Positions 14,835 to 52,148 of a stretch of DNA of 64,000 bases are shown one piece after another (position 1 is the stretch's first letter; every line of letters begins with the position of its first letter). Source of the DNA: an uncultured bacterium (GTDB taxonomy: Bacteria > Desulfobacterota > GWC2-55-46); assembly GCA_905339405.1 (NCBI GenBank), contig CAJPGC010000030.1:43956-107955 (forward strand), in the 5' to 3' direction. The notes under the pieces are model-generated. The model was not told where the DNA came from. It worked only from the letters and a program-made list of their open reading frames with translations, and did no database searches. The position numbers and the translations under genes are program-made.

Positions 14835-15743
14835 ATGATATCTGAAAGACTAAAGTATTTGAACTTCGGCCTTGCCCTGCTGGCCTTCCCTCTAATGGGC
14901 CTGCTGGCAAAGGACCTGCTGGTCCTCAAATACAGGCCCGAGATAAAGACCGGCCTGCCGCCGGTGGCGGCTGAGGCCCCGGCAGATGCGCCCTTTGAGA
15001 GCTACTCCCCGATACTCGAGCGTGGGGCCTTCCCTTCCGCCACGAGGCAGCTTACGAAGATCGACATCCTCGATGCTGCCGCGGCGGCGGCCCACCCGGT
15101 GCTGACAGAGCTCAGGCTGATCGGCACTTACGCAGGCGCGGCCGGTTACGCTGTCTTTGAAAAGACAGGCTCGGCCGTCCAGGAGGTCTTCCGGACAGGT
15201 CAATCTGTATTCGAAGCTGGCACTCTGCTGGCCGTAGAGGACGGCAAGGCAAAGATTTCCGCTTCCGGAAGCGAAGTCACTTTCACGGTCTTCAATGAAG
15301 AACTTCCCTCGAGCATAACGGAGATGGGAGAGGCGGCAGAGCTGCCGGACACCGAAGACGGGCAGCCTGCCCGGCAGTCGAGCACGGGGGCGAGCTTAAG
15401 GTACACGGAAAAAGTCTCGGAGAATGCGTGGGTGATTGACCAGAAGGCCGTGGCCGCATCCCTCAGCGACATGAGCCGGGTCATGACGGACGCCAGACTC
15501 ACCCCGAAGGTCTCTTCCGGCGGGACGGTCGAGGGGTTCACCCTGACGGACATAAAGCCCAGGGGCATTTTCGACGCCATAGGTTTAGAGGACGGGGACG
15601 TCCTCACGAAGATAAACGGCTACGAGATAGACTCCCCCGAGAAGGCCGTGCAGGTGCTCTCGGCGCTTCGCGGGCAGACGAACATAGACCTCGATATCGT
15701 GCGCGCTGGCAAGCCAAAGAGCCTGCACTACACCATAAGGTAA
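14835..15743 (+). CDS. gspC: Type II secretion protein C (PDZ)
   Basis: N-terminal TM, HR domain (LRLIGT) and PDZ domain (IGLEDGDVLTKING). Confidence 0.88.
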   Translation: MISERLKYLNFGLALLAFPLMGLLAKDLLVLKYRPEIKTGLPPVAAEAPADAPFESYSPILERGAFPSATRQLTKIDILDAAAAAAHPVLTELRLIGTYAGAAGYAVFEKTGSAVQEVFRTGQSVFEAGTLLAVEDGKAKISASGSEVTFTVFNEELPSSITEMGEAAELPDTEDGQPARQSSTGASLRYTEKVSENAWVIDQKAVAASLSDMSRVMTDARLTPKVSSGGTVEGFTLTDIKPRGIFDAIGLEDGDVLTKINGYEIDSPEKAVQVLSALRGQTNIDLDIVRAGKPKSLHYTIR

Positions 15744-15777
15744 AAAAGGAGCGTGAAAAAGCCGAAGCCGGATTGTG

Positions 15778-15786
15778 TGTTATAAT
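15778..15786 (+). promoter_or_regulatory. Extended -10 element upstream of gspD
   Basis: TGtTATAAT in the gspC-gspD spacer. Confidence 0.5.
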
Positions 15787-15918
15787 CTCTACGTATTTTG
15801 ATGTGAGCAGCGCACCGTATTCCATGCCGCACCCTTTGCCGAACGCCGAATCGCAGCTGGCCGGGCCTTTTGCCCGCCACTGCCACCACACCCTCCGATC
15901 GTCATGGGATACTCGCAT

Positions 15919-17874
15919 ATGGCTAAAAAAGCCGCCGTCCTCATCTTCCTCTTCATCCTGTTCGCTATCCCGGGAGTTGTCCATCCTCAACAGGCCGGCC
16001 AGAAAAAAGCGAAAGCCGCCGAGAAGATAACCCTCAACTTCGTTGACGTCGAGATATCCTCGCTCGTCAAGATAATGAGCGAGATAACCGGCAGGAACTT
16101 CATCTACGACGAGAACCTCAAGGGCAAGGTAACGATAATCGCCCCCGGCAAGCTCACGAGCGAGGAGGCCCTAAGCGTTTTCGTCTCGGCCCTGGAGCTG
16201 AAGAACTTCACGATCATACACACTGACGGCTACTACAAGATAGTGCCGGCGGCCGAAGCAAGGCAGAGCGCGACGAGGGTGATGAAGAACGTCGGAGCGG
16301 CGCGCCCGGACGAGTTCATCGTAAGGCTCATCCCGCTAAATTACGTGCCGAGCCAGGACGCCTTCTCGGCCGTCCAGCCGCTGGTTTCGAGGAACGGGCA
16401 GATATCTGTCTTCGGCTCGAGGAACGCCCTCCTCCTTGTGGACACGGCGCAGAACATCGAGAAGATACTCGAGATAATCGCCTCGATAGACTCCCCACCC
16501 TCGGTTCGCGCCCCGGAGGTCATATACCTCAAGTACGCGCAGGCCGACGTCATCTCCCAGCTCCTCAGGAGGGAGGAAGCAAGGCGCGGAGGCGGCAGGA
16601 GGGGCGAGAACGGGGAAGGCAGCTCCATCGTCCCCGACACGAGGCTGAACGCGATAATCCTGTCCGATTCGATCTCGGACAGGGAGTATTACAGGAACTA
16701 CATATCGTTCCTTGACGTGCCCCCTCCGGAGGCCTCGAGCCGCATAAACGTCTACTACCTGGAGAACGCAGACTCCGAGGACATGGCAAGGGTGATAGAC
16801 GCGCTCCTGAGGCCAGGGGCCGCCCAGCAGCAGGCGTCGCAGGCGGCCGGTGCGGCCGCGGCCCCGATAGCGCAGGAGCTTACTGGCGCGAAGATAAGCG
16901 TTACGCCGTTCAAGGCGGCGAACTCGCTCATAATCATGGCCTCTCCTGCCGACTACCAGAACCTTGTGCAGGTCATCGAGAGGCTCGACAGGAGGCCCAA
17001 GCAGGTCTTCGTCGAGGCAATGATAACCGAGGTGACGGTCGACAAGGCTCTGGAACTGGGCACGAGGTTCCGGGTCACGGCGGAAAAGGACAACTCTCCG
17101 GTAGTCATCGGAGGCGTCGGCTCGATAGATTCTACGGCTATACAGGGGATACTGAACGGGCTGGCCGGGCTCACCATAGGAGGCCTCGGAAACCTCCTCA
17201 CTGTGCCAATCACGAGGGCCGACGGCACGACCTTCAATCTCACGGCCCCGGGCTTCGCGGTCCTTTTCTCGCTCTCGGAGTTCAAGGACATAGTGAACGT
17301 GCTGTCGACCCCGCATATCCTGACGAGCGACAACCACGAGGCGGAGATAATGGTCGGCGAGAACGTCCCCTTTCTCTCCAGCTTCGAGCGCCAGTCCGGG
17401 ACGGAGGGGCAGCCTGTCATACAGTCTATTGAAAGAAGGGACGTCGGCATAAGGCTCAGGATAAAGCCGAAGATAAGCGAAGGGGATTTCGTAAAGCTTG
17501 ACATCTACCAGGAGATCTCGGCCATCTCGCCCACGAGGACCGGCGGGGCGGCAGACATCATAACGACTAAGAGGTCGGCCCAGACGAGCGTGGTCGTCAA
17601 GAACAACCAGACGGTCGTCATAGGCGGCCTGATACAGAACAGGAACACCAACAACTCGAGCAAGGTCCCTCTCCTGGGCGACATACCGCTTATAGGCTGG
17701 CTCTTCAAGTCGACAAGGGACCAGAACCAGAAGACCAACCTGCTGGTCTTCATAACGCCGTACATCGTCGAGGACTTCAAGGGACTCGAGGATCTGAGGC
17801 TCAAAAAACAGCAGGAGTTCAACAGGTACGGCGTAAATCCGCAAAGCAACGGGAGGCCTTCGAGACTGCCCTGA
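15919..17874 (+). CDS. gspD: Type II secretion secretin D
   Basis: ITLNFVDVEI, N-domains, QVFVEAMI, LSTPHIL and KVPLLGDIPLIGWLF. Confidence 0.96.
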   Translation: MAKKAAVLIFLFILFAIPGVVHPQQAGQKKAKAAEKITLNFVDVEISSLVKIMSEITGRNFIYDENLKGKVTIIAPGKLTSEEALSVFVSALELKNFTIIHTDGYYKIVPAAEARQSATRVMKNVGAARPDEFIVRLIPLNYVPSQDAFSAVQPLVSRNGQISVFGSRNALLLVDTAQNIEKILEIIASIDSPPSVRAPEVIYLKYAQADVISQLLRREEARRGGGRRGENGEGSSIVPDTRLNAIILSDSISDREYYRNYISFLDVPPPEASSRINVYYLENADSEDMARVIDALLRPGAAQQQASQAAGAAAAPIAQELTGAKISVTPFKAANSLIIMASPADYQNLVQVIERLDRRPKQVFVEAMITEVTVDKALELGTRFRVTAEKDNSPVVIGGVGSIDSTAIQGILNGLAGLTIGGLGNLLTVPITRADGTTFNLTAPGFAVLFSLSEFKDIVNVLSTPHILTSDNHEAEIMVGENVPFLSSFERQSGTEGQPVIQSIERRDVGIRLRIKPKISEGDFVKLDIYQEISAISPTRTGGAADIITTKRSAQTSVVVKNNQTVVIGGLIQNRNTNNSSKVPLLGDIPLIGWLFKSTRDQNQKTNLLVFITPYIVEDFKGLEDLRLKKQQEFNRYGVNPQSNGRPSRLP

Positions 17875-17897
17875 AGGCGAAGGGACGAGTAGACAGG

Positions 17898-19448
17898 ATG
17901 GACAACGAAGTTTTCGAGACGATGCCCAAAGGCGGCATACACAGGATAAAAGAGATAAAAGACGAGTACGTCGACCCGGCCATGCTCGAGAAAGTGAGCC
18001 TCAGCTACGTCAAGAAGAACATGGTCATGCCGCTTCGCGTGAAAGAAGGCCACCTGCTCGTGGCCCTCTCCGGGCCCAGGGGCATATTCACGGTAAACGA
18101 GCTCGAGCGCCTCACCGGGCTTCCGGTAAAACCTGTATTCGCCTCAGAAAAGCAGATACTCGACGCGATAAACAGGTTCTACGACAGGCTCTCCGGGTCG
18201 GCCCAGGACGTCATGAACGGGATGAGCGGCGAGTCAATAGAGTCGATATCGACGACCGAATGGGAAGAGCCCAAGGACCTCCTGGACGCCGCTGACGAGG
18301 CTCCCATCATAAGGCTCCTGAACTCGCTCCTTTTCAGGGCCGTCAAGGACAGGGCCAGCGACATACACATCGAGCCCTATGAAAAAGAGGTCGAGGTCAG
18401 GTACAGGATAGACGGCGTACTGTACCCGGTGCTTACCCCTCCAAAGAGTATACAAGAAGCCCTTGCGAGCAGGGTCAAGATAATGGCCGGACTCGACATT
18501 GCCGAAAAAAGGCTGCCGCAGGACGGCAAAATAAGGCTACTCGTCGCCGGGAAGGACGTGTACGTCAGGGTGTCGGTCATGCCGACTTCGTACGGCGAAA
18601 GGATAGTGCTCCGCATACTCGACCGCAAGTCCGACATAATAACCCTCGACATGCTCGGGCTCACGGCCCGCCAGGTCACGGTCCTCGAGGGGCTCCTTAC
18701 GAGGAGCAGCGGAATAATCCTCGTGACCGGGCCAACCGGCTCGGGAAAGACGACCACCCTCTACTCCGCCATAAACAGCATAAACTCGACCGCAAGGAAC
18801 ATCATCACTGTCGAAGACCCTGTCGAGTACCAGTTGAAGGGAATAGGCCAGGTGCACGTGAACCCGAAGATAGGGCTCACCTTCGCCCACGGCCTGCGCT
18901 CAATCCTTAGGCAGGACCCCGACGTCATAATGGTCGGAGAGATAAGGGACAGGGAGACGGCTGAGATAGCCATACAGGCCTCCCTAACCGGCCACCTCGT
19001 GCTCTCGACCCTCCACACGAACGACACCGCGAGCGCCATCACCAGGCTCGTGGACATGGGCATAGAGCCTTTCCTCGTGGCCTCGTCGCTCTCAGGCGTG
19101 CTGGCCCAGAGGCTCGTGAGGGTGCTGTGCCCCGAGTGCAAAAAGCAATACGAGCCGACGGCCGAAGAGGCTAAGCTCTTTCAGACCAGGCCCGCGAAGC
19201 TGTACGCCGCCAGTGGCTGCGACAAGTGCTTTTCCACCGGCTATTACGGCAGGCTCGGCATATTCGAGTTCCTCGTGCCGGGCCAGGAGATGAGGCCGAT
19301 GATATTGAAAAATCAGGACGCCGACACCCTGAAGAGGTACGCCATATCCAAAGGCATGCGCACGATGATGGAAGACGGACTTGAGAAGGCGGCCCTCGGG
19401 ATGACGAGCGTGGAAGAGGTGCTGAGGGTCACGAAGGACGAGGAGTAG
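17898..19448 (+). CDS. gspE: Type II secretion ATPase E
   Basis: ASDIHIEP, GPTGSGKTT, LRQDPD, TLHTND and a CPEC/CDKC Zn site. Confidence 0.96.
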   Translation: MDNEVFETMPKGGIHRIKEIKDEYVDPAMLEKVSLSYVKKNMVMPLRVKEGHLLVALSGPRGIFTVNELERLTGLPVKPVFASEKQILDAINRFYDRLSGSAQDVMNGMSGESIESISTTEWEEPKDLLDAADEAPIIRLLNSLLFRAVKDRASDIHIEPYEKEVEVRYRIDGVLYPVLTPPKSIQEALASRVKIMAGLDIAEKRLPQDGKIRLLVAGKDVYVRVSVMPTSYGERIVLRILDRKSDIITLDMLGLTARQVTVLEGLLTRSSGIILVTGPTGSGKTTTLYSAINSINSTARNIITVEDPVEYQLKGIGQVHVNPKIGLTFAHGLRSILRQDPDVIMVGEIRDRETAEIAIQASLTGHLVLSTLHTNDTASAITRLVDMGIEPFLVASSLSGVLAQRLVRVLCPECKKQYEPTAEEAKLFQTRPAKLYAASGCDKCFSTGYYGRLGIFEFLVPGQEMRPMILKNQDADTLKRYAISKGMRTMMEDGLEKAALGMTSVEEVLRVTKDEE

Positions 19449-19457
19449 CAAGGACGT

Positions 19458-20660
19458 ATGCCTACATTCAGTTACAAAGCCTACAACAGGGGCGGCGGCC
19501 AGGTCGCGGGGAATATCGAAGCCGCAGGCCCGAAAGAAGCGGCACAGTCGCTCAAGAACACCGGGCTCTACCCCACAGAGGTAAAGGAAGCTGGCAAGGA
19601 GGCGGGCAAAACGCTTTTCGGCCAGCGCGTAAGCCCCGGGGCCCTGGCGGCTGCGGCCAGACAGCTCGCGACCCTTATCTCGACCGGCACGTCCATCGCC
19701 GAAGCCCTCCAGGTGCTCGCTGAAAATACCGACAACCAAAAGCTCCGCGCAATTCTCCTTGAAACGAAAGACAGCGTCCTGGGCGGCAGCTCCCTTTCAA
19801 AGGCCCTATCGGCGAACCCTGATGTCTTCTCTCCACTGTTCAGAGGGCTCGTGCAGGCCGCAGAAGCGAGCGGCTCGCTTGACCAGGTGCTCCCCAGGCT
19901 TGCGGACTACCTCGAAAAAAGGGCGCGCATACGCTCTGAGGTACGGGCCGCCCTCACCTATCCGGCGCTCATGACGATAGTCGGCGCGGCGGTGCTCGCC
20001 TTCCTGTTCATCTTCGTCATCCCCAAGATATCGCGCATATTCGAGGACACCGGCACCAGGCTACCCTTCATAACGGTACTTCTCCTCTGGATGACAGACA
20101 TCGTCCGCTCGTACTGGCCATTCCTGCTCGGGGCCATTGGGGGGGCTTACTGGTTCCTCATGCGCCGATCGAGGAGCGCCCGGGGCCGTGAGATGAAAGA
20201 CAGGCTGCTCTTGAAGCTGCCGTGGTTCGGCGCAATCGTCTTGAGCTTCCACATGGCCAACCTTACAAGGACGCTCGGGACGCTCCTGAAGGGCGGCGTG
20301 CAGATGCTCAAGGCCCTCGAGATATGCAGGGAAGCTATCGACAACAAGGTCTTCGACAAGGTGCTGGACCTGGCCGCGAAAGACTGCGCCGAGGGCAGCT
20401 CCCTTTCCGCGTCGCTCAAGAAATCCGCCCTGGTCCCTCCCCTTGTCTGCCACATGATAAGCGTCGGCGAAAGGAGCGGCAACCTTGACGAGATGCTCCT
20501 TAAGACCGCCGAGTCGTACGACGCCTACTTCGAGGACGGCGTTAAGCGCTCATTGAGCCTCATGGAGCCTGTCCTCATACTCGCGATGGGCCTCGTCGTG
20601 GGCTTCATCGTCCTTGCGATGCTCCTCCCCATCTTCGAGCTGAACCAGACCATCCGCTGA
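19458..20660 (+). CDS. gspF: Type II secretion platform protein F
   Basis: AAEASGSL, ALTYP, VGERSGNL and MEPVLI. Confidence 0.95.
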   Translation: MPTFSYKAYNRGGGQVAGNIEAAGPKEAAQSLKNTGLYPTEVKEAGKEAGKTLFGQRVSPGALAAAARQLATLISTGTSIAEALQVLAENTDNQKLRAILLETKDSVLGGSSLSKALSANPDVFSPLFRGLVQAAEASGSLDQVLPRLADYLEKRARIRSEVRAALTYPALMTIVGAAVLAFLFIFVIPKISRIFEDTGTRLPFITVLLLWMTDIVRSYWPFLLGAIGGAYWFLMRRSRSARGREMKDRLLLKLPWFGAIVLSFHMANLTRTLGTLLKGGVQMLKALEICREAIDNKVFDKVLDLAAKDCAEGSSLSASLKKSALVPPLVCHMISVGERSGNLDEMLLKTAESYDAYFEDGVKRSLSLMEPVLILAMGLVVGFIVLAMLLPIFELNQTIR

Positions 20661-20717: not shown

Positions 20718-20892
20718 CGCGCCATCCCGTTCATCCCAAAAGCATACCTTCTGGTATTAGTCAAAATACTACCGTTTTTTATTCTTTCGGTGGATTGTAT
20801 TGGCACAATGCTCGGCTATCCTCTTCTTGTATGCGGCATCTGGAAAATCATTTAACAGGCCGGTCAATTATTTTGCAATCACAGGGGTTTCG

Positions 20893-21240
20893 ATGAGCCT
20901 CAGGATCTGCCCGGAATGCACAAAGGCGTTTTTCATGTCCCTTCTGGACAGCCATGCCAGGTGCCCGCATTGCGGCGTCTTCCTCGCGGACAGAAGGTGC
21001 TCCAAGAGGGAGCGCAAGGTCCGCCAGGTCACTTTCTCATTCAGCGGGTGCGTACAGAGGGCGAAAACGACCGATTTTTCCGGACACGGGGCCGGGATAG
21101 TATTCGCCGGGAAATATCTTGAAAAAGGCACGGTCATAGACGTCACCATAAGCGGGCTCATCATAAAAAAGCCGGCGAGGATGGTCTGGTCGAAACAGGG
21201 CTCGGGCTCGCTAATATCAGCCGGGATAGAGCTCCTGTAA
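20893..21240 (+). CDS. Zinc-ribbon plus PilZ domain protein
   Basis: CPEC...CPHC, then RCSKR (RxxxR) and DFSGHG (DxSxxG). Confidence 0.8.
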   Translation: MSLRICPECTKAFFMSLLDSHARCPHCGVFLADRRCSKRERKVRQVTFSFSGCVQRAKTTDFSGHGAGIVFAGKYLEKGTVIDVTISGLIIKKPARMVWSKQGSGSLISAGIELL

Positions 21241-24586: not shown

Positions 24587-25630
24587 GTGTTCAACCTGAA
24601 CTGGATAAGAAAACTGATCTTCTGGGAGAGGGACTACGGCGCCCAACTCGCGCCAGCGCCAATGGCCTTGCGCCCTGTGCGCGCCACCAGCCCTTACGGA
24701 ACTTCGATCTGGTCCGTGGGCGGCGGCAAAGGCGGCGTCGGGAAAAGCCTTGTCGCCTCGAACCTGGCGCTTTCCCTGTCGAAACAGGGCAAAAAAGTCC
24801 TGCTTGTCGACGCCGACCTCGGGGCCGCCAACCTGCACACTTTCCTGGGAGTAGAAGGCGGCAAGGGGGCCCTGTCGAGCTTCCTTAAGGACGAGATATC
24901 GGACATCGGGTCGCTCATCTCCAAGACCCCATTTCCAAACCTCGACCTCATAAGCGGCGCGAAGGACTCTCTTGACGTAGCGGACGTAAGGAACGCCCAG
25001 GTCACGAGGCTCCGCGAGGCCCTCAAAAAGGTCGAATACGACTACGCTGTCCTGGACATCGGCCCGGGGACCTCCTCCAACCTCCTCGACATGTTCCTCA
25101 TGGGCAACGAGGGGATAATCCTCTCGACGCCGGAGCCGACTACCATAGAGAACAACTACAGGTTCCTCAAATGCCTCTTCCTGAGAAAGATAAAGTCCAT
25201 CGCCGACTCACAGGAAGACGGATTGCTGAACGGCATGCTACAGAAGATATTCAGCGACAAGTGGTCGCAGAGGGTCAAGACGGTTGCGGACATAGTCGAG
25301 CAGATCTCAATGCTGGACTTCGACCAGGGCAGGATGCTCAAGGAGGACCTCGCGGCCACGAGCATCTCGATGATAATGAACCAGACGAAAAGGAACGAAG
25401 ACGCGGAGATGGGTGACTCGATACGGAAGGCCTGCACCGATTATTTCGGAATGGACATAGGGTATCTCGGCTCCGTGGGTTATGAGGAGACCGTCAGCGA
25501 ATCTGTAAGGCTGAGGAGACCGCTGGTCATGCACTACAGCGCATCCAGGGCTGCCAGGTCAATCGAGGGGTGTCTGGAGAAGCTCATGAACAGAGCAAAC
25601 AAAACTCAACCCGTCACAATCCAATTCTAA
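24587..25630 (+). CDS. MinD/FlhG/ParA-family ATPase
   Basis: Deviant Walker A GGKGGVGKS, DADLGAANL, DIGPG and PEPTTIEN. Confidence 0.9.
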   Translation: MFNLNWIRKLIFWERDYGAQLAPAPMALRPVRATSPYGTSIWSVGGGKGGVGKSLVASNLALSLSKQGKKVLLVDADLGAANLHTFLGVEGGKGALSSFLKDEISDIGSLISKTPFPNLDLISGAKDSLDVADVRNAQVTRLREALKKVEYDYAVLDIGPGTSSNLLDMFLMGNEGIILSTPEPTTIENNYRFLKCLFLRKIKSIADSQEDGLLNGMLQKIFSDKWSQRVKTVADIVEQISMLDFDQGRMLKEDLAATSISMIMNQTKRNEDAEMGDSIRKACTDYFGMDIGYLGSVGYEETVSESVRLRRPLVMHYSASRAARSIEGCLEKLMNRANKTQPVTIQF

Positions 25631-25638
25631 AGGGAATT

Positions 25639-26637
25639 ATGGAGCATAAAAAAGAGAAGACCTATTACGAGATCCTCGAAGTGAACTCCAAGGCTCCCAT
25701 GAGCGAGATAGAACAGGCGTACAGGAAATCGAAGTCGCTCTACGGGGGCGACTCCATGGCCCTGTACTCTCTGTACACGCCGGAGGAGCGCCAGGACAAG
25801 CTCAAGCAGCTCGAGGACATCCTTGAGACGCTGACGGACCCCGTCAAGAGAAAATCTTACGACCAGTACATCGGCAGCCTTTCAGCCGCTCCAGCGGCTG
25901 AAAAGAGCCCGCAGCTGAAAGAGGCAGCCAGGGACGTCTTCGACGAGTACAACGAGGCCGGGGCTTTCAGGGACAGGATAAGCTTCAAAAAACAGCTCCC
26001 CATCATGGAGGGCAAGGACGCGATGATCTGCGAGAGGTACAGGATACTGTACACGAGGCTCGAGCAGATAAGCTCTAAAAAAGCGTTCAAGTCATTCGCG
26101 GTGACAAGCGCGGTAAAAGGTGAAGGCAAGACGACGACTTCGCTGAACCTGGCCTGGCTGATGGCCAACGAGTTCGGCAAGAAGGTGCTGCTCATCGAGA
26201 GCGACTTCAGGAACCCTTCCATCTCCTCCAACTACATCAGCATGGGAAGGCTGAGCGGCCTTGTGGACGTCATAAACGGGGAAGCTGACATAAGGTCGGC
26301 CATAAACAGGTTCGAGGACACGAGGCTCTACCTGCTGCCGGCGCGCACCAGCGTCAAGAACTCGTCGATGCTGGTCGACTCGCAGGGCATGAAGAACGTG
26401 CTTGAGCGGGCCAAGAGCGACTTCGACTACGTCATCGTCGATTCTCCGCCGATCCTTCCGCTCGTCGACATGAACATACTTTCGAAGATGGTGGACGGCC
26501 TCCTCCTTGTCGTGAAGGCAGGCTCGACGCCCAAGGACCTCGTAAGAAAAGCAGTGAACTCGCTCCCGAACAAAAACGTCTCGGGTGTCGTCTTGAACGG
26601 AGCCGACGACAATCACATGAAGAAATACTATTACTGA
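25639..26637 (+). CDS. BY-kinase (CpsD/CapB) with an N-terminal J-like domain
   Basis: YYEILEV..EIEQAY..LTDPVKRKSYD with no HPD; then GEGKTT, LLIESD, IVDSPP and C-terminal YYY. Confidence 0.88.
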   Translation: MEHKKEKTYYEILEVNSKAPMSEIEQAYRKSKSLYGGDSMALYSLYTPEERQDKLKQLEDILETLTDPVKRKSYDQYIGSLSAAPAAEKSPQLKEAARDVFDEYNEAGAFRDRISFKKQLPIMEGKDAMICERYRILYTRLEQISSKKAFKSFAVTSAVKGEGKTTTSLNLAWLMANEFGKKVLLIESDFRNPSISSNYISMGRLSGLVDVINGEADIRSAINRFEDTRLYLLPARTSVKNSSMLVDSQGMKNVLERAKSDFDYVIVDSPPILPLVDMNILSKMVDGLLLVVKAGSTPKDLVRKAVNSLPNKNVSGVVLNGADDNHMKKYYY

Positions 26638-26855: not shown

Positions 26856-27341
26856 ATGGAAAACTGGTATTTGATTTACACGAAACCGAAGTGCGAGGAC
26901 ATGGTGGAAGGCAAACTCATCGGCGCGGGCTTCACCGTCCTCAACGCCAAGGTAAGGGAAAGGAAGTTCTTAAGGGGCAAGGTAATGGACGCCGTCTCCC
27001 CTCTTTTCCCGAGCTACGTCTTCGCGAAGTTCGAAAAATTCAGAGACTACCACCTCATCAGGTACACGAGGGGCGTCAAATGGGTGCTGAGCAGCGAAGA
27101 AGGCCCTTCTGAGATACCGGACAGGGTGGTAGATTCCATCGTCGAGAGGATCGAGGACGGCTTCGTGAAGATAAGGAGCTCGTTCACGCAGGGCCAAAAC
27201 GTCATCATAAAGGGCGGCCCCTTCGAAGGGTTTACGGCGGTTTTCGAGAAGGAGATGAGCGGCATGGAGCGCGTCTGTCTCCTTCTGAAGGCGATAAACG
27301 TAAGGCTCGTAATAGACAGGAGCATGATCGCGGGCTGCTGA
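26856..27341 (+). CDS. NusG paralogue, RfaH/UpxY-like antiterminator
   Basis: WYLIYTKP, PLFPSYVF, IRYTRGV and KOW motif GGPFEG. Confidence 0.9.
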   Translation: MENWYLIYTKPKCEDMVEGKLIGAGFTVLNAKVRERKFLRGKVMDAVSPLFPSYVFAKFEKFRDYHLIRYTRGVKWVLSSEEGPSEIPDRVVDSIVERIEDGFVKIRSSFTQGQNVIIKGGPFEGFTAVFEKEMSGMERVCLLLKAINVRLVIDRSMIAGC

Positions 27342-27435
27342 AGACTAACAAGCTTAAATGGTTTGGATGAACGCGCCGGTTTTTACAGGGCGGAAAAGAC
27401 GGCAATAACGCTTTCAAAAAGGTGCGCAAGACGCA

Positions 27436-27495
27436 TCAACGGCGGTAGCCCACCCGGGCAGGACATCGGATATGTCAACGGCGGTAGCCCATCCA
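27436..27495 (+). promoter_or_regulatory. Two tandem ops-like elements
   Basis: TCAACGGCGGTAGCCCA at 27436 and at 27475, 39 nt apart. Core GGCGGTAG matches the RfaH ops core. Confidence 0.75.
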
Positions 27496-27506
27496 GGACA
27501 TCTAAA

Positions 27507-28652
27507 ATGAAAAGCTTCCTGAGGAACACAGCCAGGAATATAAGGCGCGGCGTCTTTCAGTTCAAGTGCACGGACTTTCTGAAAGAGGCCGACTCCGGGC
27601 TCTACGTGGAGGACTACTTCCACGAGATGGTCTGTCTTGAGCGGAGGCGGGCCGAGCGCTCGGGCAGGGCCTTTTTTCTGCTTCTCGCAGACCTCGAGGG
27701 CCTTTCGCATGAAAACAGAGCGGAAATCACGAGGCGTGCGGCTAAAAAGGTCACGGCGGCGACAAGGGAAATAGACCTAAAAGGCTGGTACAGCCAGGGA
27801 CACGTTCTCGGGGTCATACTGACCGAAACAGACAGAGACGGCGCTGAAAAGGTCAAAACGAAGCTCCTTGAAGGGTTCGGCGAAGCCGATGCCCTGGGCG
27901 CGGATGCGGAACTGGTGAAGGTCTCAGTACACGCTTTTCCCGAAGAAAAAGCCGCAGGCAAGAGAATACCGGAGGACCTGAAGCTCTACCCGGACCTCTC
28001 AACAAAAAAGAGCCTAAAAAAAAAGGGCACGCTCTTTAAAAGAGCAGTAGACATCGCCGGAAGCATCGGCGGGCTCATCCTGTTCTCCCCGTTTTTTTTG
28101 ATAATCCCGGCGCTCATAAAACTTACTTCAAAAGGCCCGGTCTTTTTCAGGCAGACACGCGTAGGAAGACTCGGGCAGAACTTCACGTTCCTGAAGTTCA
28201 GGTCGATGCACGCTGGCGCGGACCCGGCGATACACTCGGAGTACATCAAGAAGCTCATAAACGAGGACAGCGCCTGGAAAGGCGACGGAGAAAAAATTTA
28301 CAAGATAAGCGACGACCCGAGGGTCACCAGGGTCGGCAAGTTCCTCAGGAAGACGAGCCTGGACGAGCTGCCCCAGTTCCTGAACGTCCTTTCGGGCGAC
28401 ATGTCCCTCGTCGGCCCGCGCCCGCCGATACCGTATGAGATGGAGTCCTATGAACTGTGGCACTGGAGAAGGGTAATGGAAGCCAAACCCGGGCTCACCG
28501 GCCTCTGGCAGGTCTCCGGGAGAAGCACGAAATCCTATAACGAGATGGTCAGGCTTGACATACGGTACATGGACCGGTGGTCGTTGTGGCTCGACCTGAA
28601 GATAATATTCCTGACGCCGCTTGCGATGCTTTCAAGCAAGGACGCGTACTGA
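27507..28652 (+). CDS. Priming (undecaprenyl-phosphate) sugar transferase with an N-terminal degenerate GGDEF-like domain
   Basis: C-terminal part: [30 protein letters not shown] and [10 protein letters not shown]-terminal part: GLY..YF....[19 protein letters not shown]-x5-SQGHV and ILTETD. Confidence 0.9.
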
Positions 28653-28672
28653 AACAAGGGGGGTGCGGCAAG

Positions 28673-29674
28673 ATGCTCAGAGTGGGAGTAGTCGGCTACG
28701 GTTACTGGGGGCCGAACATAGTAAGGAACTTCAACGCCTCCGAAAAGGCGAACGTAGTCGCCGTGTGCGACAAGAACGAAAACGCGCTCGGCAGGGTCAG
28801 ACGGAACTATCCCGGCATCAGGACGACCTCGGACATAAACGACATAGTGCGCTCGCCGGACATAGACATCGTGACGGTCATAACTCCGGTGAGCACCCAT
28901 TACGAACTCGCGAAGGCGGCCCTGGAGAACGGAAAGCACGTCTTCGTCGAAAAGCCGTTTACGTCGACCACCGCAGAGGCCGAGGAGCTCATCGAGCTTG
29001 CCGAAAAAAAAGGGCTGAAGCTGATGGTCGACCACACGTTCCTGTTCACGAGCGTCGTAAAGCGCATCAGGGAGATTATCGAGGAGAACGTCCTGGGCGA
29101 GCTCTATTACTACGATTCCACCAGGGTCAACCTCGGCCTGTTCCAAAGGGACGTCAACGTGATATGGGACCTCTCGCCGCACGACTTCTCCATAATGGAC
29201 TACCTCATCAAGGAACGGCCCCTTGCCATCGCGGCCGCTGGCAAAGCGCACATAAACTCTAAAGAAGACATCGCCTACATAATGGTCTACTTCAATAACA
29301 ACATAATAGCCCACTTCAACGTCAACTGGCTCTCCCCTGTGAAACTAAGAACGACCCTCATAGGCGGAGAAAAGAAGATGCTCGTCTGGAACGACGTCGA
29401 CGCCGACGAAAAACTCAAAGTATACGACAGAGGAGTAGAGATAAAGAGCAAGGAGGGCATCTACGACCTTCTGGTGAATTACCGCTCCGGGGACATGTGG
29501 GCTCCAAAGGTCGATCAGCTCGAGGCCCTGAGGCTCGAGACGGAATACTTCGTGGACTGCATAGAGAAGGACGAAACTCCATTCAACGACGGCCAGGCGG
29601 GCCTGCGCGTAGTAAGGATGCTGGAAGCCTGCGACAGGTCGCTCAAGAACAACGGGAGAATGGTATACCTATGA
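28673..29674 (+). CDS. Gfo/Idh/MocA oxidoreductase (NDP-sugar 3-dehydrogenase-like)
   Basis: GYGYWG, VEKP and WDLSPHD. Confidence 0.9.
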   Translation: MLRVGVVGYGYWGPNIVRNFNASEKANVVAVCDKNENALGRVRRNYPGIRTTSDINDIVRSPDIDIVTVITPVSTHYELAKAALENGKHVFVEKPFTSTTAEAEELIELAEKKGLKLMVDHTFLFTSVVKRIREIIEENVLGELYYYDSTRVNLGLFQRDVNVIWDLSPHDFSIMDYLIKERPLAIAAAGKAHINSKEDIAYIMVYFNNNIIAHFNVNWLSPVKLRTTLIGGEKKMLVWNDVDADEKLKVYDRGVEIKSKEGIYDLLVNYRSGDMWAPKVDQLEALRLETEYFVDCIEKDETPFNDGQAGLRVVRMLEACDRSLKNNGRMVYL

Positions 29675-30192
29675 ACTACGCGGCAAGGCTTAGACATATT
29701 CCGGAGGAGGAAAAAAGCTTCAACAGGATAGCGCCCGACGTCAAGCTCGGAGACGGCGTGGTCCTCAGCTCTTTCATAAACCTCTACGGCTGCTCCATCG
29801 GCGAGCGCACCAAGATCGGGGCATTCGTCGAAATACAGAAGAACGCGGCAATAGGGACTAACTGCAAGATCTCGAGCCATTCTTTCATATGCGAGGGAGT
29901 GACCATAGAGGACAACGTCTTCATCGGCCACGGCGTGACCTTCATAAATGACACATACCCCAGGGCCACGAACGGCGGGGGCGCACTCCAGACAGAGAGC
30001 GACTGGAAAGTCGAAAGGACCATCGTAAGGAAAGGCGCTTCAATCGGTTCAGGGGCGACCATTATGAGCAACGTCGTCATTGGAGAAAATTCGATAGTGG
30101 GGGCCGGAAGCATGGTTCTAAAAGACGTCCCCGCGAACAGCATAGTGGCCGGAAACCCGGCAAGACTCCTGAGGAGCATGGAAAATGAATAA
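29671..30192 (+). CDS. Hexapeptide-repeat N-acyltransferase (WbpD/QdtC-like)
   Basis: Left-handed beta-helix repeats, FINDTYPRA and VAGNPAR. Confidence 0.9.
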   Translation: MNYAARLRHIPEEEKSFNRIAPDVKLGDGVVLSSFINLYGCSIGERTKIGAFVEIQKNAAIGTNCKISSHSFICEGVTIEDNVFIGHGVTFINDTYPRATNGGGALQTESDWKVERTIVRKGASIGSGATIMSNVVIGENSIVGAGSMVLKDVPANSIVAGNPARLLRSMENE

Positions 30193-31384
30193 GACAGGCC
30201 AGATGACCGGATCATCCGACATACCCTTTCTCGACCTCGTCTCCCCCCACCTCGAACTCGAAGAAGAGCTCGTGGAGGTCTACAGGCGATCTTTGAGAAA
30301 CGCCGCATTCATAGGAGGCCCGGCTGTAGAGGGGTTCGAAAAGGACTTCGCCAGATTTTGCGGCGCATATCACTGCGCCGGGGTCAGCAGCGGCACGGAC
30401 GCGCTCAGGTTCGCCATCATGGCCTCCGGCGTAAAGCCGGGAGATACGGTCGTGACCGTCTCAAACACCTTCATCGCTACAGTCGAGGCCATAACCCAGG
30501 CCGGCGCGACGCCTGCGTTCGTCGACATCGACGAGGCGACTTTCAACATGGACCCCGAGCTCCTCGCGGAGTACCTCGAAGCCAGGTGCGATATTGGCTC
30601 TGACGGAAGGCCGGTTGACCGCAGGACCAAGAGCCCCGTCACCGCGGTCGTCCCTGTGCACCTGTACGGACAGGCCTGCCGGATGGACAGGATAATGGAG
30701 ATAGCTGAGCGTCATAAACTCAAGGTCATTGAAGACGCCTGCCAGGCCCACGGAGCCGAGTATTATTCGGAGAGGGAAAAAAGCTGGAAAAGGGCAGGCT
30801 CTATGGGCATTGCCGCGGCTTTCAGCTTCTACCCCGGGAAGAACCTCGGGGCCTGCGGCGAAGGCGGTGCCGTCACAACGATGGACGCGGGGATAGATTC
30901 GGCTTCAAGGATGCTGCGCGACCACGGGCAGACGCGGAAGTACCACCACGCGATGGAAGGCTATAACGGAAGGCTTGACTCGATACAGGCCGGGATTCTC
31001 GGCGTGAAGCTTAAAAAACTCGAAGCCTGGAACGATATGAGACGCCAGAGGGCCAGGACCTACGGAGAGCTCTTCGAAGGATGCGCGGATGTCATAACTC
31101 CTGAAGAGCCCTCGGGGTCAAAGGCGGTATGGCACCTGTACGTCGTGCGCGTAAAAGAAAGGGACGCACTGCAAAAGCGCCTTTCAGAAAACGGCGTCGG
31201 CACCGGCCTCCATTACCCGGTTCCCCTTCACCTCCAGAAGGCCTGCGAGCGTTACGGATACAGGAGGGGCGAGCTTCCAGTGACCGAGAGGCTCTCGGAG
31301 GAGATACTTTCACTGCCGATGTTCCCGGGGTTGACCTGCGGCCAGCAGGAGCGCGTCGCCGAGCTCATCCTCGGCGGCCGCTGA
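30185..31384 (+). CDS. DegT/DnrJ/EryC1/StrS aminotransferase
   Basis: SGTDAL, PVHLYGQ, EDACQAHG and SFYPGKNLG. Confidence 0.95.
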   Translation: MNKTGQMTGSSDIPFLDLVSPHLELEEELVEVYRRSLRNAAFIGGPAVEGFEKDFARFCGAYHCAGVSSGTDALRFAIMASGVKPGDTVVTVSNTFIATVEAITQAGATPAFVDIDEATFNMDPELLAEYLEARCDIGSDGRPVDRRTKSPVTAVVPVHLYGQACRMDRIMEIAERHKLKVIEDACQAHGAEYYSEREKSWKRAGSMGIAAAFSFYPGKNLGACGEGGAVTTMDAGIDSASRMLRDHGQTRKYHHAMEGYNGRLDSIQAGILGVKLKKLEAWNDMRRQRARTYGELFEGCADVITPEEPSGSKAVWHLYVVRVKERDALQKRLSENGVGTGLHYPVPLHLQKACERYGYRRGELPVTERLSEEILSLPMFPGLTCGQQERVAELILGGR

Positions 31385-45622: not shown

Positions 45623-46458
45623 AGATAAAAATACTGATGATAACGCACAACAGGCCGCAGTACACCGCCCTTTCACTCACAAGGCTGACTGAAACAGTAC
45701 CTGATAACGCGAAAATTACCGTCTGGGACAACGCTTCCTCGGAAGAGACCCTCACGGTACTCAAACGGTTCGAGCGCCACCCTTCCGTCGAGCGGGTCAT
45801 CTACAACAGGACAAACGACAAGCTCTGGGGCCCGACGAACTGGTTCTGGAAGAACTCGAAAGACGCTGACCTCCTCAGCAAGATAGACGACGACTGCCTG
45901 ATGCCTGCAAGGTGGGCCGAAAAGCTCCAGGAAGCGCATGGTGACATCCCTGAAGCAGGAATCATCGGCTGCTGGAGGTTCATGCCCGAGGACATGAACA
46001 ATTCAAAGGCCGCGAAAAAAATACAGGCGTTCGGCCGTCATATGCTCCTCAGAAACTGCTGGGTCGAGGGGTCGGGCTATCTCCTCAAGAGAAAGCTCAT
46101 AGAGGAGATAGGCCTTCTCCGGCCGAAAGAGACTTTTACGACGTGGTGCCTGAGGGCCGCCGCTCGGGGATACATAAACGGGTGGTATTACCCTTTCATG
46201 TACCAGGAGCACATGGACGATCCCAGGGCCGAGCACACCGGTATAAAGACCGACGAAGACCTGATGAAGTACCTTCCTCTGTCAGCCGCCCAGAACGGGA
46301 TAAAAACAAAAGACGACTGGGTGGCGAAACTGAAATCGAGCGCGGCGCGGCTGCAGGAGTATTCCCTGGACCCGTACGATTTCATCGGCGTCAAGCCAAA
46401 GCTCAAAAGAAGGCTGCTGAGGCTCCTCGGAATAACCTACTTCCCCAAGGCCAGATGA
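45619..46458 (+). CDS. GT2 glycosyltransferase
   Basis: THNRP, WDNAS and KIDDD. Confidence 0.88.
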   Translation: MKIKILMITHNRPQYTALSLTRLTETVPDNAKITVWDNASSEETLTVLKRFERHPSVERVIYNRTNDKLWGPTNWFWKNSKDADLLSKIDDDCLMPARWAEKLQEAHGDIPEAGIIGCWRFMPEDMNNSKAAKKIQAFGRHMLLRNCWVEGSGYLLKRKLIEEIGLLRPKETFTTWCLRAAARGYINGWYYPFMYQEHMDDPRAEHTGIKTDEDLMKYLPLSAAQNGIKTKDDWVAKLKSSAARLQEYSLDPYDFIGVKPKLKRRLLRLLGITYFPKAR

Positions 46459-47729
46459 GATTCGAAAACGTGAACGATATAGCCGCGTGGAGGCTGTGCC
46501 TGGGCTGCGGTGCCTGCGCGTGGGCTTGCGAAAACAAGGCTGTCAACCTCATCGACGTAACTGACGACGGCATAAGGCCGTCCGTCGGCGAAAGCTGCCA
46601 GGGATGCGGCCGCTGCGTGGAGGTCTGCCCCGGGGCCGACACTTCACACGGAAAATGGGCCGAAGGCGTAGACCCGGAGCTTTCATCTTCCTGGGGCCCT
46701 GTGTTCGAGGTCTGGGAAGGACACGCAGCAGACCCGGAAGTAAGGTTCAAGGGCTCTTCAGGCGGCGCGGCCACCGCGCTTGCCCTTTACTGCCTGGAAA
46801 AAGAAGGGCTCTACGGAGCCGTCCACGCGGGAGCCGACAAGGACGAGCCATGGAAGAACAAAACCCAGCTCAGCAAAAGCCGCGAAGAGCTGCTCGGCAA
46901 ATCCGGCTCAAGATACTCACCTGCCTCTCCCTGCGACGGGCTCGGCATAATGGAGGCGGCGCCCTCACCCAGCGTCTTCATCGGGAAGCCCTGCGACGTA
47001 GCAGGCCTCAGGAAGGCACAGGCCATAAGCGCCGAGCTCGACAGCAGGACGGCCCTGGCGATTAGCATATTCTGCGCGGGCACGCCCTCGACTAAAGGCA
47101 CGATCGACCTGCTGGCGCGATTCCGGAAAGAACCCTCTGAGATAGAATCGCTTAGATACAGAGGGAACGGCTGGCCCGGCAACTGGACTGCCGAATCGAG
47201 CGCCGGGACCTCAAGCATACCGTACAAAACAGCCTGGAGCTTCCTGCAAAGGTATCGCCCGCTCCGATGTCAACTTTGCCCCGATGGCACCGGCGAGTTC
47301 GCTGACATATCATGCGGCGACCCCTGGTACAGGGAGATAACGCCCGGGGAGCCCGGCCTTTCGCTCATCCTGGCGAGAACGGATAAAGGCAGGCGGGTTC
47401 TCAAGGCTGCCGCGGAGGCAGGCTATCTTAAGATAAAAAAAATCGACTCCAGCCTCCTTGAAAAATCCCAGGCGAACCTGCTGGCAAAAAGAAGGGCCAT
47501 CTGGGGAAGGCTGCTTGGTTTGAGGCTTCTTCTGGCCCCTGTCCCCACTCTCAGCGGCTTCAGCCTCTTTGAAAACTGGAAGGGCCTCAGCGCCTACGAA
47601 AAACTGAGGAGCGTCGCAGGCACCCTGAGACGCGCGCTAAGGCGGGAGTATTACAGGAGGTCCAGGTCATTCCCTGTCCGCGCCGTCCTAAGGGACATCT
47701 CAATCATCCGAAAGCGAGGAGCAATATGA
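46455..47729 (+). CDS. FrhB/FdhB-like (F420 hydrogenase beta subunit) Fe-S flavoprotein with 2x[4Fe-4S]
   Basis: CLGCGACAWAC, CQGCGRCVEVCP, SSGG, GSRY, GKPC, FCAG, YRG.GWPG and RC..CPD...ADISCGD. Confidence 0.9.
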   Translation: MRFENVNDIAAWRLCLGCGACAWACENKAVNLIDVTDDGIRPSVGESCQGCGRCVEVCPGADTSHGKWAEGVDPELSSSWGPVFEVWEGHAADPEVRFKGSSGGAATALALYCLEKEGLYGAVHAGADKDEPWKNKTQLSKSREELLGKSGSRYSPASPCDGLGIMEAAPSPSVFIGKPCDVAGLRKAQAISAELDSRTALAISIFCAGTPSTKGTIDLLARFRKEPSEIESLRYRGNGWPGNWTAESSAGTSSIPYKTAWSFLQRYRPLRCQLCPDGTGEFADISCGDPWYREITPGEPGLSLILARTDKGRRVLKAAAEAGYLKIKKIDSSLLEKSQANLLAKRRAIWGRLLGLRLLLAPVPTLSGFSLFENWKGLSAYEKLRSVAGTLRRALRREYYRRSRSFPVRAVLRDISIIRKRGAI

Positions 47730-48868
47730 AAACAGAAAAGCTTTTCAAGACGCCGCTGACGCCCGCGCAGATATCCAACAGCGAGCTTAACCTCAGGGAG
47801 TTCAAAGAAGGCAGGACCGAGCTTGCGTCCAGCCCCAGGAGGATAGTATTCGAGCTTACGAACAGGTGCAACTTCCAGTGCATCATGTGCGGACGCGAGG
47901 CCGTCAACTTCAAGACGAAAGACCTCCCGGTAGACGTGGTGAAGGCCTGCGAGCCGTTCTACGGACAAACAGAAGAAGTCACCCTTCACGGCTGGGGAGA
48001 AGGCACGCTCCACCCGAAGACAGCCGAGGTCCTCGAGTACCTCAACTCGTTCCCCATGCTCAGAAAGTATTTCGTCACCAACGGGTCGACCATGCCGCGC
48101 ATAATGGGGCCGATATTCGCCCACCACGTCGACCTCGTCGCTGTCTCTCTCGACGGGGCCACGCCCGAGACTAACAACGGGATAAGAAAAGGCGGGGACT
48201 TCAACCGCGAGGTCGCCTCGATAAGGCTGCTTATGGAGGAGAAGGCGAAGCGCGGCGCTAACTACCCCTACGTGAACCTCGTCTTCACGGCGATGGCGCG
48301 GAACATCCACGAGCTCCCCAAGATGGTCGAGCTCGCCAGGGAACTCGGCCTCCCAGAGGTCAAGGTAGTCTATCTGACCATCTTCAACGAAGCGCTCGCA
48401 GCCGAATCGCTCGTCGACAGACAGCAGCTCGTCATGGAACACTTTGGCAAGGCAATGGAGCTTGCTGAAAAATACGGCATAAACCTGAAACTTCCGGAGA
48501 TACAGGGTGCCGGGGAGGCAGGCCTGATGAAGCACAAGACCTGCCCTTTCCCCTGGCGTGACCTTTACATCGGCAGCGACGGGTACGTGCGCCCCTGCCA
48601 GTCGTCTGCGGACAAGCTCCTTCACATCGGCGGCTACGGCAGCTTCGAGGCGGTCTGGAACTCGGAACCCATGCAGAAAATGAGGTCGACCGTTAACGAC
48701 CCTGAAGCGATGCCCGCCGGTTGCGCGAACTGCTATCACAGCAGCTGCGCCAACTGGAACCTTTCGACGAGCTTCGTGCAGCTCGGGAAGAAATTCGCTC
48801 CGGACTGGATGGCGGACAAGGGGAAAGCCGCGGCAGCTGTCGAGACATTGAAGGCCGCTGTTGAATAG
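47726..48868 (+). CDS. Radical SAM protein with a SPASM/twitch domain
   Basis: CNFQCIMC, GWGEG, TNG and SLDG; C-terminal CPFPW...G.V.PC...CANC...C. Confidence 0.92.
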   Translation: MKTEKLFKTPLTPAQISNSELNLREFKEGRTELASSPRRIVFELTNRCNFQCIMCGREAVNFKTKDLPVDVVKACEPFYGQTEEVTLHGWGEGTLHPKTAEVLEYLNSFPMLRKYFVTNGSTMPRIMGPIFAHHVDLVAVSLDGATPETNNGIRKGGDFNREVASIRLLMEEKAKRGANYPYVNLVFTAMARNIHELPKMVELARELGLPEVKVVYLTIFNEALAAESLVDRQQLVMEHFGKAMELAEKYGINLKLPEIQGAGEAGLMKHKTCPFPWRDLYIGSDGYVRPCQSSADKLLHIGGYGSFEAVWNSEPMQKMRSTVNDPEAMPAGCANCYHSSCANWNLSTSFVQLGKKFAPDWMADKGKAAAAVETLKAAVE

Positions 48869-48901
48869 ACGGCTGGAAAAAAGAGCAAAGGAGACAAAGC
48901 C

Positions 48902-49669: not shown

Positions 49670-49689
49670 ATCAAAAGAAGGAGAAGGAG

Positions 49690-50919: not shown

Positions 50920-50930
50920 AAGGAGCCCGG

Positions 50931-52142: not shown

Positions 52143-52148
52143 AACCTG

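Follow-up and report, generated by a model that had tools for sequence, protein, structure and literature searches.

Degenerate GGDEF domains that retain an RxxD motif, such as those of PelD and PopA, are established receptors of cyclic di-GMP (c-di-GMP). PelD, from the Pel system of Pseudomonas aeruginosa, belongs to a membrane-bound polysaccharide machine, and c-di-GMP control is well established only for polysaccharide systems of this synthase-dependent type. The stretch analyzed here (the window) is the whole 64,000 nucleotides from positions 43,956 to 107,955 of contig CAJPGC010000030.1 (assembly GCA_905339405.1), from an uncultured Desulfobacterota bacterium of the GWC2-55-46 lineage, and its positions are counted from its first letter. 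It encodes a 381-residue protein, P0001, in which a truncated and decayed GGDEF-fold domain with a retained RxxD motif stands in front of a predicted monotopic phosphoglycosyl transferase (PGT). This N-terminal domain (N-domain) is proposed to be a fused c-di-GMP receptor of the inhibitory-site (I-site) type, whose ligand would favor active PGT dimers and thereby turn on exopolysaccharide (EPS) synthesis at its first committed step; the probability of this reading is put at about one half. The fusion places a known receptor module on a new output and defines a large unannotated family.

P0001 resembles PelD and PopA (Caulobacter) in its GGDEF fold, its decayed active site (A-site) and its retained RxxD, and it resembles PelD further in that the domain would be the cytoplasmic part of a membrane-bound polysaccharide machine. 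Whereas PelD forms a GAF-GGDEF subunit of its own within a synthase-dependent system, the domain here is fused to an enzyme and belongs to a Wzx/Wzy-type pathway. The domain is also shorter (about 120-140 residues) and its ligand binding is a prediction; the PelD I-site includes a third arginine, which is not placed in P0001. The likeness to PleD, WspR and GcbC, canonical diguanylate cyclases with product inhibition, lies in the shared fold (best structural Z 14.2-14.7) and in an RxxD five residues before the A-site, and the differences are the lack of GG(D/E)EF, a loop deletion of about six residues and the absence of C-terminal elements. In the predicted dimer, helix alpha1 of each copy is paired with its partner's RxxD loop, which recalls c-di-GMP cross-linked GGDEF dimers.

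The transferase half compares with PglC and with WbaP, WcaJ and EpsZ. In monotopic PGTs a hydrophobic segment re-enters the cytoplasmic leaflet, and the hallmarks of the PglC type are a single re-entrant helix with a Ser-Pro break and an Asp-Glu catalytic pair. P0001 shares with these enzymes the Bac_transf domain, the presumed single re-entrant helix and the Asp-Glu pair (D286-E287), but unlike the small PGTs (about 200 aa) and the large PGTs (four transmembrane (TM) helices and a domain of unknown function (DUF)) it carries a soluble GGDEF-like N-terminal extension.

Excerpts of a November 2025 article (PMC12802240) describe the post-translational regulation of Wzx/Wzy pathways as incompletely understood and c-di-GMP control as characteristic of synthase-dependent ones. 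The same excerpts report control of the PGT step by other signals, namely by CapB1 on CapM and by EpsW~P of Myxococcus xanthus, which is proposed to activate the monotopic PGT EpsZ by promoting its dimer. They also report that WbaP dimerizes via a hairpin; the domain bearing this hairpin is absent from the GGDEF-like/PGT family. Like EpsW~P and EpsZ, the present protein is a candidate for post-translational activation of an initiating Wzx/Wzy PGT by a signaling domain, but EpsW~P is a separate phosphorylated receiver protein, whereas the candidate regulator here is part of the enzyme itself and would respond to a nucleotide second messenger. A preliminary description of the locus had inferred direct allosteric control of the first committed step by c-di-GMP (or cyclic GMP-AMP), a control point not known to be established. 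Its claim of novelty stands for c-di-GMP, in that no GGDEF-PGT fusion or c-di-GMP-binding PGT was found in the full-text literature, subscription journals not being covered; it does not stand for the PGT step in general, where control by other signals is known. The holdfast pathway of Caulobacter is of the Wzy type, and its glycosyltransferase HfsJ acts after the priming step and, to our knowledge, has no GGDEF-like domain. HfsJ is needed for synthesis of the holdfast, an exported polysaccharide adhesin, and is reported to bind c-di-GMP (excerpts of PMC9980756). The control proposed here would likewise act directly on a glycosyltransferase, but on the priming PGT.

The N-terminal domain and its transferase partner

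The reading frame of P0001 is open already from a TTG at 27363, and the ATG at 27507 is the likely start because relatives share an identical MKSFLRNT N-terminus. On sequence grounds the protein is a monotopic PGT. Its Bac_transf match scores 222.1 bits against a cut-off of 27 and spans positions 1-178 of the 179 in the profile (Table 1). Among Protein Data Bank (PDB) sequences the C-terminal half matches WbaP (E 1e-46) and PglC (E 2e-24); the WbaP alignment spans residues 173-379 and includes an LDELPQ stretch common to both proteins. D286 and P195 are invariant, and E287 is kept in at least 90%, across 43 aligned full-length sequences. A hydropathy scan of P0001 found no hydrophobic segment other than residues 180-208; since this sole segment is of the kind that is re-entrant in monotopic PGTs, the N-domain is probably cytoplasmic. 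The large-PGT architecture of four N-terminal TM helices and a cytoplasmic DUF is thus not that of P0001. The WbaP/WcaJ models TIGR03022 and TIGR03023 match residues 167/168-381 only, with 244 bits against cut-offs of 403 and 411, and TIGR03013 (EpsB_2) reaches 140.6 against a cut-off of 393.

Searched as a single sequence, the N-terminal 170 residues contain no curated Pfam domain. Pfam GGDEF does not match P0001, TIGR00254 (GGDEF) gives E 0.034 over residues 31-140, and the PDB search returns two GGDEF crystal structures at marginal values (E 0.07 and 0.4). A search with residues 1-170 then collected 44 proteins of 325 to 439 aa (mostly about 380-400), all with Bac_transf, and Pfam GGDEF matches 12 of 43 family members, every one below the cut-off (best E 0.0014). 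The N-domain is modeled by neither Pfam nor NCBIfam and is named only through family profiles.

Three alignments were used, containing 43 full-length sequences (A1), 18 N-domains (A2) and 12 canonical GGDEF domains from the same genome (A3). Against 177,635 PDB sequences the A2 profile gave 15 matches at E<=1, 13 of them GGDEF-type, led by GcbC (5euh_A, E 8.8e-6) and 3ign (E 5e-5). Down to E 0.05 the matches are GGDEF-type chains only, and the two others (E 0.13 and 0.25) are proteasome-lid proteins. Alignment of A2 with A3 by hhalign gave a probability of 98.1% and E 8e-14 over 135 columns. AlphaFold2 (AF2) models, with pLDDT of about 88-94 across residues 31-140, have the element order alpha1 (35-52), beta1 (56-62), alpha2 (71-85), beta2 (91-96), beta3 (100-105), alpha3 (110-124) and beta4 (138-144). 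Foldseek places PglC and WbaP on top for the whole-protein model, with GGDEF structures next, and for the domain-only model all listed matches are GGDEF (E 1e-6 to 2e-4, TM-score about 0.5-0.63). The first 34 rows of the VIA-align comparison are all GGDEF entries (Z 14.7 to 9.7), including PleD (1w25_A, Z 14.2, root-mean-square deviation (rmsd) 3.1 over 130 residues), FimX (13.9), LapD (13.1) and PelD (4dmz_A, Z 9.9, rmsd 3.4 over 121 residues), followed by other palm-like folds at Z 8.3 and below. The PDB profile, hhalign, AF2, Foldseek and VIA-align results together make the GGDEF fold assignment firm. The ESM Atlas, used as a lead only, returned unnamed ‘hypothetical protein’ clusters and one cluster with GGDEF on 13% of its members (score 0.89).

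The preliminary description had aligned the N-terminal ~140 aa with GGDEF domains by eye. It was right in this, as the fold is found by profile, hhalign, Foldseek and VIA-align, although the single-sequence signal is weak and a family profile was needed. Its reading of the gene as a priming glycosyltransferase fused to a GGDEF-like domain is likewise borne out, with Bac_transf lying behind the GGDEF-fold residues.

In the HMMER and hhalign alignments, SGLY..YF falls on the (D)xLTGL..NRR..F start of the canonical domain, ERRRAERS on helix alpha1, FFLLLADL on strand beta1, REID on RxxD, G93-W94-Y95 on the x-R-Y ahead of GGDEF, S96-L101 on GG(D/E)EF with one residue extra, and ILTETD..GA on (v)iLPeT...A. 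About six residues are deleted between beta1 and alpha2, at the site of the FK..ND..GH..GD substrate/metal loop of cyclases, and compared with solved and own-genome GGDEF domains the N-domain has none of the conserved loop residues K, N, D, H or GD. Beyond beta4 the domain stops, and a conserved D-L-K-L-Y-P-D-L linker aligns on A-D-x-A-(L/M)-Y of helix alpha4.

Conservation was counted in 198 domain copies aligned to the A2 profile, drawn from the 44 first matches, the window protein and the best 150 of a library search. R87, D90, G93 and W94 are each kept in 197/197, and the motif R..D..GW[YHF] occurs in 197 of the 198 copies. Other strongly kept positions are F38 (186/187), E45 (194/195), R48 (193/195), R51 (194/196), Y95 (tyrosine in 185/197), H142 (171/195), P145 (188/195), Y161 (tyrosine in 149/157) and 119, which is K or R in 194/197. 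The A-site positions 96-99 vary across the family, and a GGDEF-like A-site motif was found in 0 of 198 copies. Three of the 12 canonical GGDEF domains in A3 have no RxxD, and the motif is therefore not required by the fold; its invariance here indicates strict selection. Judged by its motifs, with every catalytic one gone, the N-domain cannot be a diguanylate cyclase. The coordinates given in the preliminary description for REID, five residues (L91-Y95) ahead of the A-site position, are exact. Its claim of a dead cyclase with an A-site decayed to SQGHV agrees with the family count and the loop deletion, and the RxxD, whose conservation across homologues it had proposed to check, is kept at canonical spacing. 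Two outcomes that it had named as refuting, the lack of a GGDEF fold and an unconserved RxxD, did not occur.

A domain that has lost all catalytic motifs could be an evolutionary leftover that does nothing by itself. That would be very hard to reconcile with the confident predicted fold, with 13 invariant positions among the 18 aligned N-domains, and with the 1619 representative clusters that an exhaustive profile search found at E<=1e-10. Three proteins (P0046, P0047 and P0048) even carry two dead GGDEF domains in tandem ahead of the PGT, with R and D kept in both copies, and the remnant explanation is considered extremely improbable.

Predicted pairing and proposed control by c-di-GMP

The pairing of N-domains was modeled with two copies of residues 25-164 and two c-di-GMP molecules, with a score that covers the protein partner only. 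The dimer obtained an ipSAE of 0.49 (runs 0.51, 0.49 and 0.43), compared with 0.02 for the best of three controls; among proteins of solved structure, 20 of 30 pairs and 1 of 23 single chains attain the mark applied to this score. The runs agree in at least 92% of contacts, with a partner pLDDT of at least 82. In the symmetric interface, residues 44, 47-48 and 51-52 of helix alpha1 lie against residues 88-89, inside the RxxD, and 106-107. The model supports pairing of the N-domains through the alpha1/RxxD (I-site) face.

A PGT charges undecaprenyl phosphate with its first sugar phosphate, here for an exopolysaccharide locus that is exosortase-linked and of the Wzx/Wzy type. In the proposed mechanism, at high c-di-GMP the ligand would occupy R87 and D90, probably bridging to R48 on helix alpha1 of a second subunit, and would in this way bring two N-domains together. 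Their pairing would then promote or stabilize the active PGT dimer and turn on the first committed step. If the ligand favors the dimeric, active PGT, polysaccharide initiation would follow the cellular c-di-GMP level. We infer all three elements of this proposal, namely c-di-GMP binding, the activating direction and dimerization as the mechanism. The own genome encodes 15 GGDEF proteins (16 matches) and 4 EAL proteins above cut-offs, and can thus make and break c-di-GMP. Canonical GGDEF domains are also present in 29 of the 30 other family-carrying genomes (the exception is a 1.5-Mb ‘archaeon’ bin), and the locus of P0001 itself contains a PilZ gene. If the proposal is true, P0001 would be the first second-messenger-gated PGT, with a c-di-GMP input at a step so far known under phosphorylation-based control only. 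The candidate receptor sits on the enzyme that commits scarce undecaprenyl phosphate, which offers a testable direct link between biofilm signaling and capsule or EPS initiation.

The same interface can be read without any nucleotide. The dead GGDEF domain would then be a constitutive dimerization or scaffold module that replaces the cytoplasmic domain and beta-hairpin joining the subunits of large PGTs such as WbaP, with RxxD, R48, R51 and E107 as interface residues. WbaP is a functional homodimer (excerpts of PMC12802240). The present family has neither the four TM helices nor the DUF of WbaP-type enzymes, the WbaP/WcaJ models match its C-terminal ~215 residues only, and the canonical third I-site arginine is not conserved. 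Moreover, the predicted interface uses exactly the conserved segments in direct protein-protein contacts (48 with 106, 107 and 89; 51 with 107 and 89), and because R48 and R51 directly contact T106/E107 and E88/I89, a ligand-free interface could account for the invariant residues. R87 and D90, however, are not among the confidently touching residues, and an interface rarely fixes two residues in 197/197 copies across several phyla amid varying neighbors. The spacing of the motif is also precisely that of a known ligand site in canonical domains, and the degenerate GGDEF domains with RxxD of PelD and PopA are ligand receptors. A scaffold without a nucleotide is on balance unlikely.

The direct contacts nevertheless weigh against c-di-GMP reception by the N-domain, as do several further points. 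The dimer model cannot separate a ligand-bridged from a constitutive dimer, and its pass may be the model's memory of solved c-di-GMP-cross-linked GGDEF dimers. A third I-site arginine lies on helix alpha3 in PleD (R390) and PelD (R402). The position aligned with it here, 121 by HMMER and 117 by hhalign, is variable, and the conserved K119 is two residues off register in both alignments; because the two disagree, K119 cannot be placed in register with the canonical arginine. The C-terminal part of a full GGDEF domain is absent. E45, R48 and R51 recur in canonical GGDEF domains and are for that reason partly inherited structural residues. Co-occurrence of the family with GGDEF genes has little power in these phyla. 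Linkage to PilZ was rejected as a family trait, because only 5 of the 80 related loci have a PilZ gene close to that of the PGT.

Architecture and spread of the family

At E<=0.001 the exhaustive profile search returned 5563 representative clusters, and at E<=1e-30 it returned 174, in addition to the count given above; the weakest of the 5563 will include true cyclases. Architecture was surveyed in 194 proteins. A complete PGT follows the N-domain in 67 of them, the PGT is cut or partial in 45, and 82 have no PGT match. All 67 full-length relatives consist of N-domain and PGT. Among the 82, 48 stop within 25 residues of the end of the N-domain. Of five longer PGT-less proteins that were read through, four pass into unrelated sequence where the domain ends or shortly beyond, in the manner of a frameshift, with the start of the PGT visible in P0051; the fifth, P0176, has a different hydrophobic tail. 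No output domain other than PGT was seen in the 194 proteins. Fusion to the PGT is exclusive, the remainder being truncated or frameshifted pieces, and free-standing forms of the N-domain are not claimed, since the PGT-less cases mostly end at the domain or look frameshifted. In P0181 (905 aa) an aspartate-kinase/ACT region precedes the rest, possibly an artificial fusion from gene calling.

When one genome of each species was scanned by pattern, relatives turned up in 372 species, for the most part MAGs of Acidobacteriota, Nitrospirota and deltaproteobacterial groups. The loci compared below are the best 80 (L013-L092), all from metagenome-assembled genomes (MAGs), with neighbors recorded within ±8 kb where the contig allowed. 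Going by record titles, half of them (40) are Acidobacteriota-type, 17 are Nitrospirota-type, 15 come from Deltaproteobacteria, Syntrophales and similar groups, and 5 from Fibrobacterota or Chitinivibrionales; Verrucomicrobiia, an unclassified genome and a ‘Nanobdellati archaeon’ bin contribute one each. This last locus (L026) is a bacterial-type fusion gene on a contig of the 1.5-Mb MAG mentioned above, and the contig is probably mis-binned because that genome has no GGDEF match. Among 31 genomes of the own lineage 4 carry the family; apart from the own genome these are 3 of 18 in the same taxonomic family, and none of the 12 from elsewhere in the order carries it. The fusion gene is an accessory trait in its lineage.

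It is possible, although rather doubtful, that c-di-GMP acts as a direct on-switch, via RxxD-alpha1 dimerization, for the whole unnamed PGT family in Acidobacteriota, Nitrospirota, deltaproteobacterial lineages and Fibrobacterota. The family amounts to at least 1619 sequence clusters from hard-to-culture soil and sediment phyla, and its signature, R-[ED]-x-D-x-x-G-W-Y ahead of Bac_transf, is currently missed by genome annotation.

A second divergent GGDEF-like N-domain occurs on another contig of the own genome (L095, 919-1920, minus strand), in a 333-aa protein with an unnamed C-terminal half. It has RSCD followed by a decayed A-site, and it matches the A2 profile at E 6e-7 with no Pfam GGDEF match.

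The surrounding polysaccharide locus

The P0001 gene sits within a one-directional locus, whose features are listed in Table 1 with those of the protein itself.

Table 1. Positions of the fusion gene, its protein features and neighboring genes in the window
Feature	Position	Strand	Basis or remark
LuxR/CsgD-like regulator	13786	+	With the Gsp set, ahead of the polysaccharide export genes
GspC, GspD, GspE, GspF	14835-20657	+	Immediately upstream of polysaccharide export genes
Small PilZ-domain protein, two CxxC pairs in front	20800..21240	+	Pfam PilZ E 2.7e-6, above cut-off
Wza-like exporter	21275		
Outer-membrane protein	21906		
Chain-length determinant	23065		
J-domain and bacterial tyrosine kinase (BY-kinase)-type P-loop ATPase ending YYY	25570..26637	+	Pfam DnaJ (residues 31-98), AAA_31
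RfaH/UpxY-like NusG paralogue, directly upstream of PGT	26856..27341	+	Pfam NusG E 8e-14; TIGR01955 RfaH E 7e-26, below cut-off
Two copies of 17-nt direct repeat in PGT leader, ops-like	27436..27491 (27436-27452, 27475-27491)	+	Read from sequence
GGDEF-like/PGT fusion gene (P0001, 381 aa)	27507..28652	+	Open reading frame and translation; N-terminus common to relatives
Degenerate truncated GGDEF-fold domain, residues ~25-164	27579..27998	+	AF2, profile vs PDB, hhalign, Foldseek, VIA-align
Helix alpha1 segment E45-S52 (ERRRAERS), near-invariant E45, R48, R51	27639..27662	+	Family conservation
RxxD motif R87-E-I-D90 at I-site position	27765..27776	+	Aligned on RxxD of solved and own-genome GGDEF
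Decayed A-site S96-Q-G-H-V100 (former GG[D/E]EF hairpin)	27792..27806	+	Aligned on GGEEF
K119, helix alpha3, conserved basic residue close to where the canonical third I-site arginine lies	27861..27863	+	Family conservation
Bac_transf catalytic domain, residues 178-375, including D286-E287	28038..28631	+	Pfam PF02397 E 5e-66
Single hydrophobic segment, residues 180-208, presumed re-entrant membrane helix, holds S194-P195	28044..28130	+	Hydropathy scan
Gfo-type dehydrogenase, hexapeptide acetyltransferase, DegT aminotransferase	28577-31381	+	
Deacetylase, FemAB-like protein	Downstream		Downstream of PGT
Polytopic membrane protein	33785		Candidate Wzy
Glycosyltransferases	Downstream of 33785		
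Amidotransferase	38077		Pyruvyl transferase downstream of it
Wzx flippase	44150		Methyltransferases downstream
Exosortase	55167-56111		PF09721, 178 bits, above cut-off

Near the PGT gene in the 80 related loci, the Gfo dehydrogenase (55), hexapeptide acetyltransferase (55), BY-kinase (50) and DegT aminotransferase (48) are the most frequent neighbors, followed by the chain-length determinant (42), the FemAB-like protein (24), the RfaH-like protein (22), Wza (20) and PilZ (5). The trio of dehydrogenase, aminotransferase and acetyltransferase suggests that the donor is a UDP-2,3-diacetamido sugar.

These neighbors bear on a further alternative, in which the N-domain senses or docks another partner, either 3'3'-cyclic GMP-AMP (3'3'-cGAMP) or (p)ppGpp at the RxxD or the neighboring BY-kinase, which would control the enzyme by phosphorylating the conserved Y95 or Y161. 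CapB1 makes the small PGT CapM more active by phosphorylating it on tyrosine (excerpts of PMC12802240). The frequencies of the BY-kinase-type gene with its YYY end and of the chain-length determinant, together with the conservation of the two tyrosines, speak for such a partner, and PleD entries with ppGpp or pppGpp (9g85 and 9g86, by title) are among the fold matches. Nothing, however, points to RxxD as a kinase docking site, and the BY-kinase linkage is non-specific because BY-kinase and polysaccharide co-polymerase genes accompany most Wzy-type loci whatever their PGT. Another partner of this kind is judged quite improbable.

The exosortase is accompanied by matches to the PEP-CTERM models TIGR03027, 03007, 03018, 03019, 03108 and 03016, all below their curated cut-offs. 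The locus is for this reason called exosortase-linked and Wzx/Wzy-type, and not proven XrtA.

In the PilZ-domain protein, RxxxR and DxSxxG can be read by eye, and its gene lies directly 5' of the Wza-like export gene; it is a candidate for a second c-di-GMP receptor of the locus. The MshEN motif that binds c-di-GMP is of the RLGxx type. The GspE ATPase (17898-19445) has a Pfam MshEN match, but it was rejected as a second c-di-GMP receptor, as its N-terminus shows no RLGxx-type motif by eye.

Each 17-nt repeat of the PGT leader holds GGCGGTAGC (27441-27449 and 27480-27488), and these are the only two matches within the window. The repeat resembles the RfaH ops element, GGCGGTAG..., and is placed shortly after the RfaH-like gene. 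A plus-strand copy of GGCGGTAGC lies at most 1 kb upstream of the PGT start in 22 of the 80 related loci, either 26-99 nt or about 650-760 nt before that start, the more distant copies preceding the RfaH-like gene in those loci in which it was detected. The related loci, 1.15 Mb in total, hold 33 copies on the plus strand versus 8 on the minus strand.

The BY-kinase-type ATPase scores 141.7 bits with TIGR01007, above the cut-off of 108; polysaccharide tyrosine autokinases do not usually begin with a J-domain, as this protein does. Further downstream (46143-53327, plus strand), an FrhB-like 4Fe-4S protein, a radical-SAM/SPASM protein, a nucleotidyl transferase and three consecutive C-methyltransferase-type genes suggest an unusually modified, methylated sugar.

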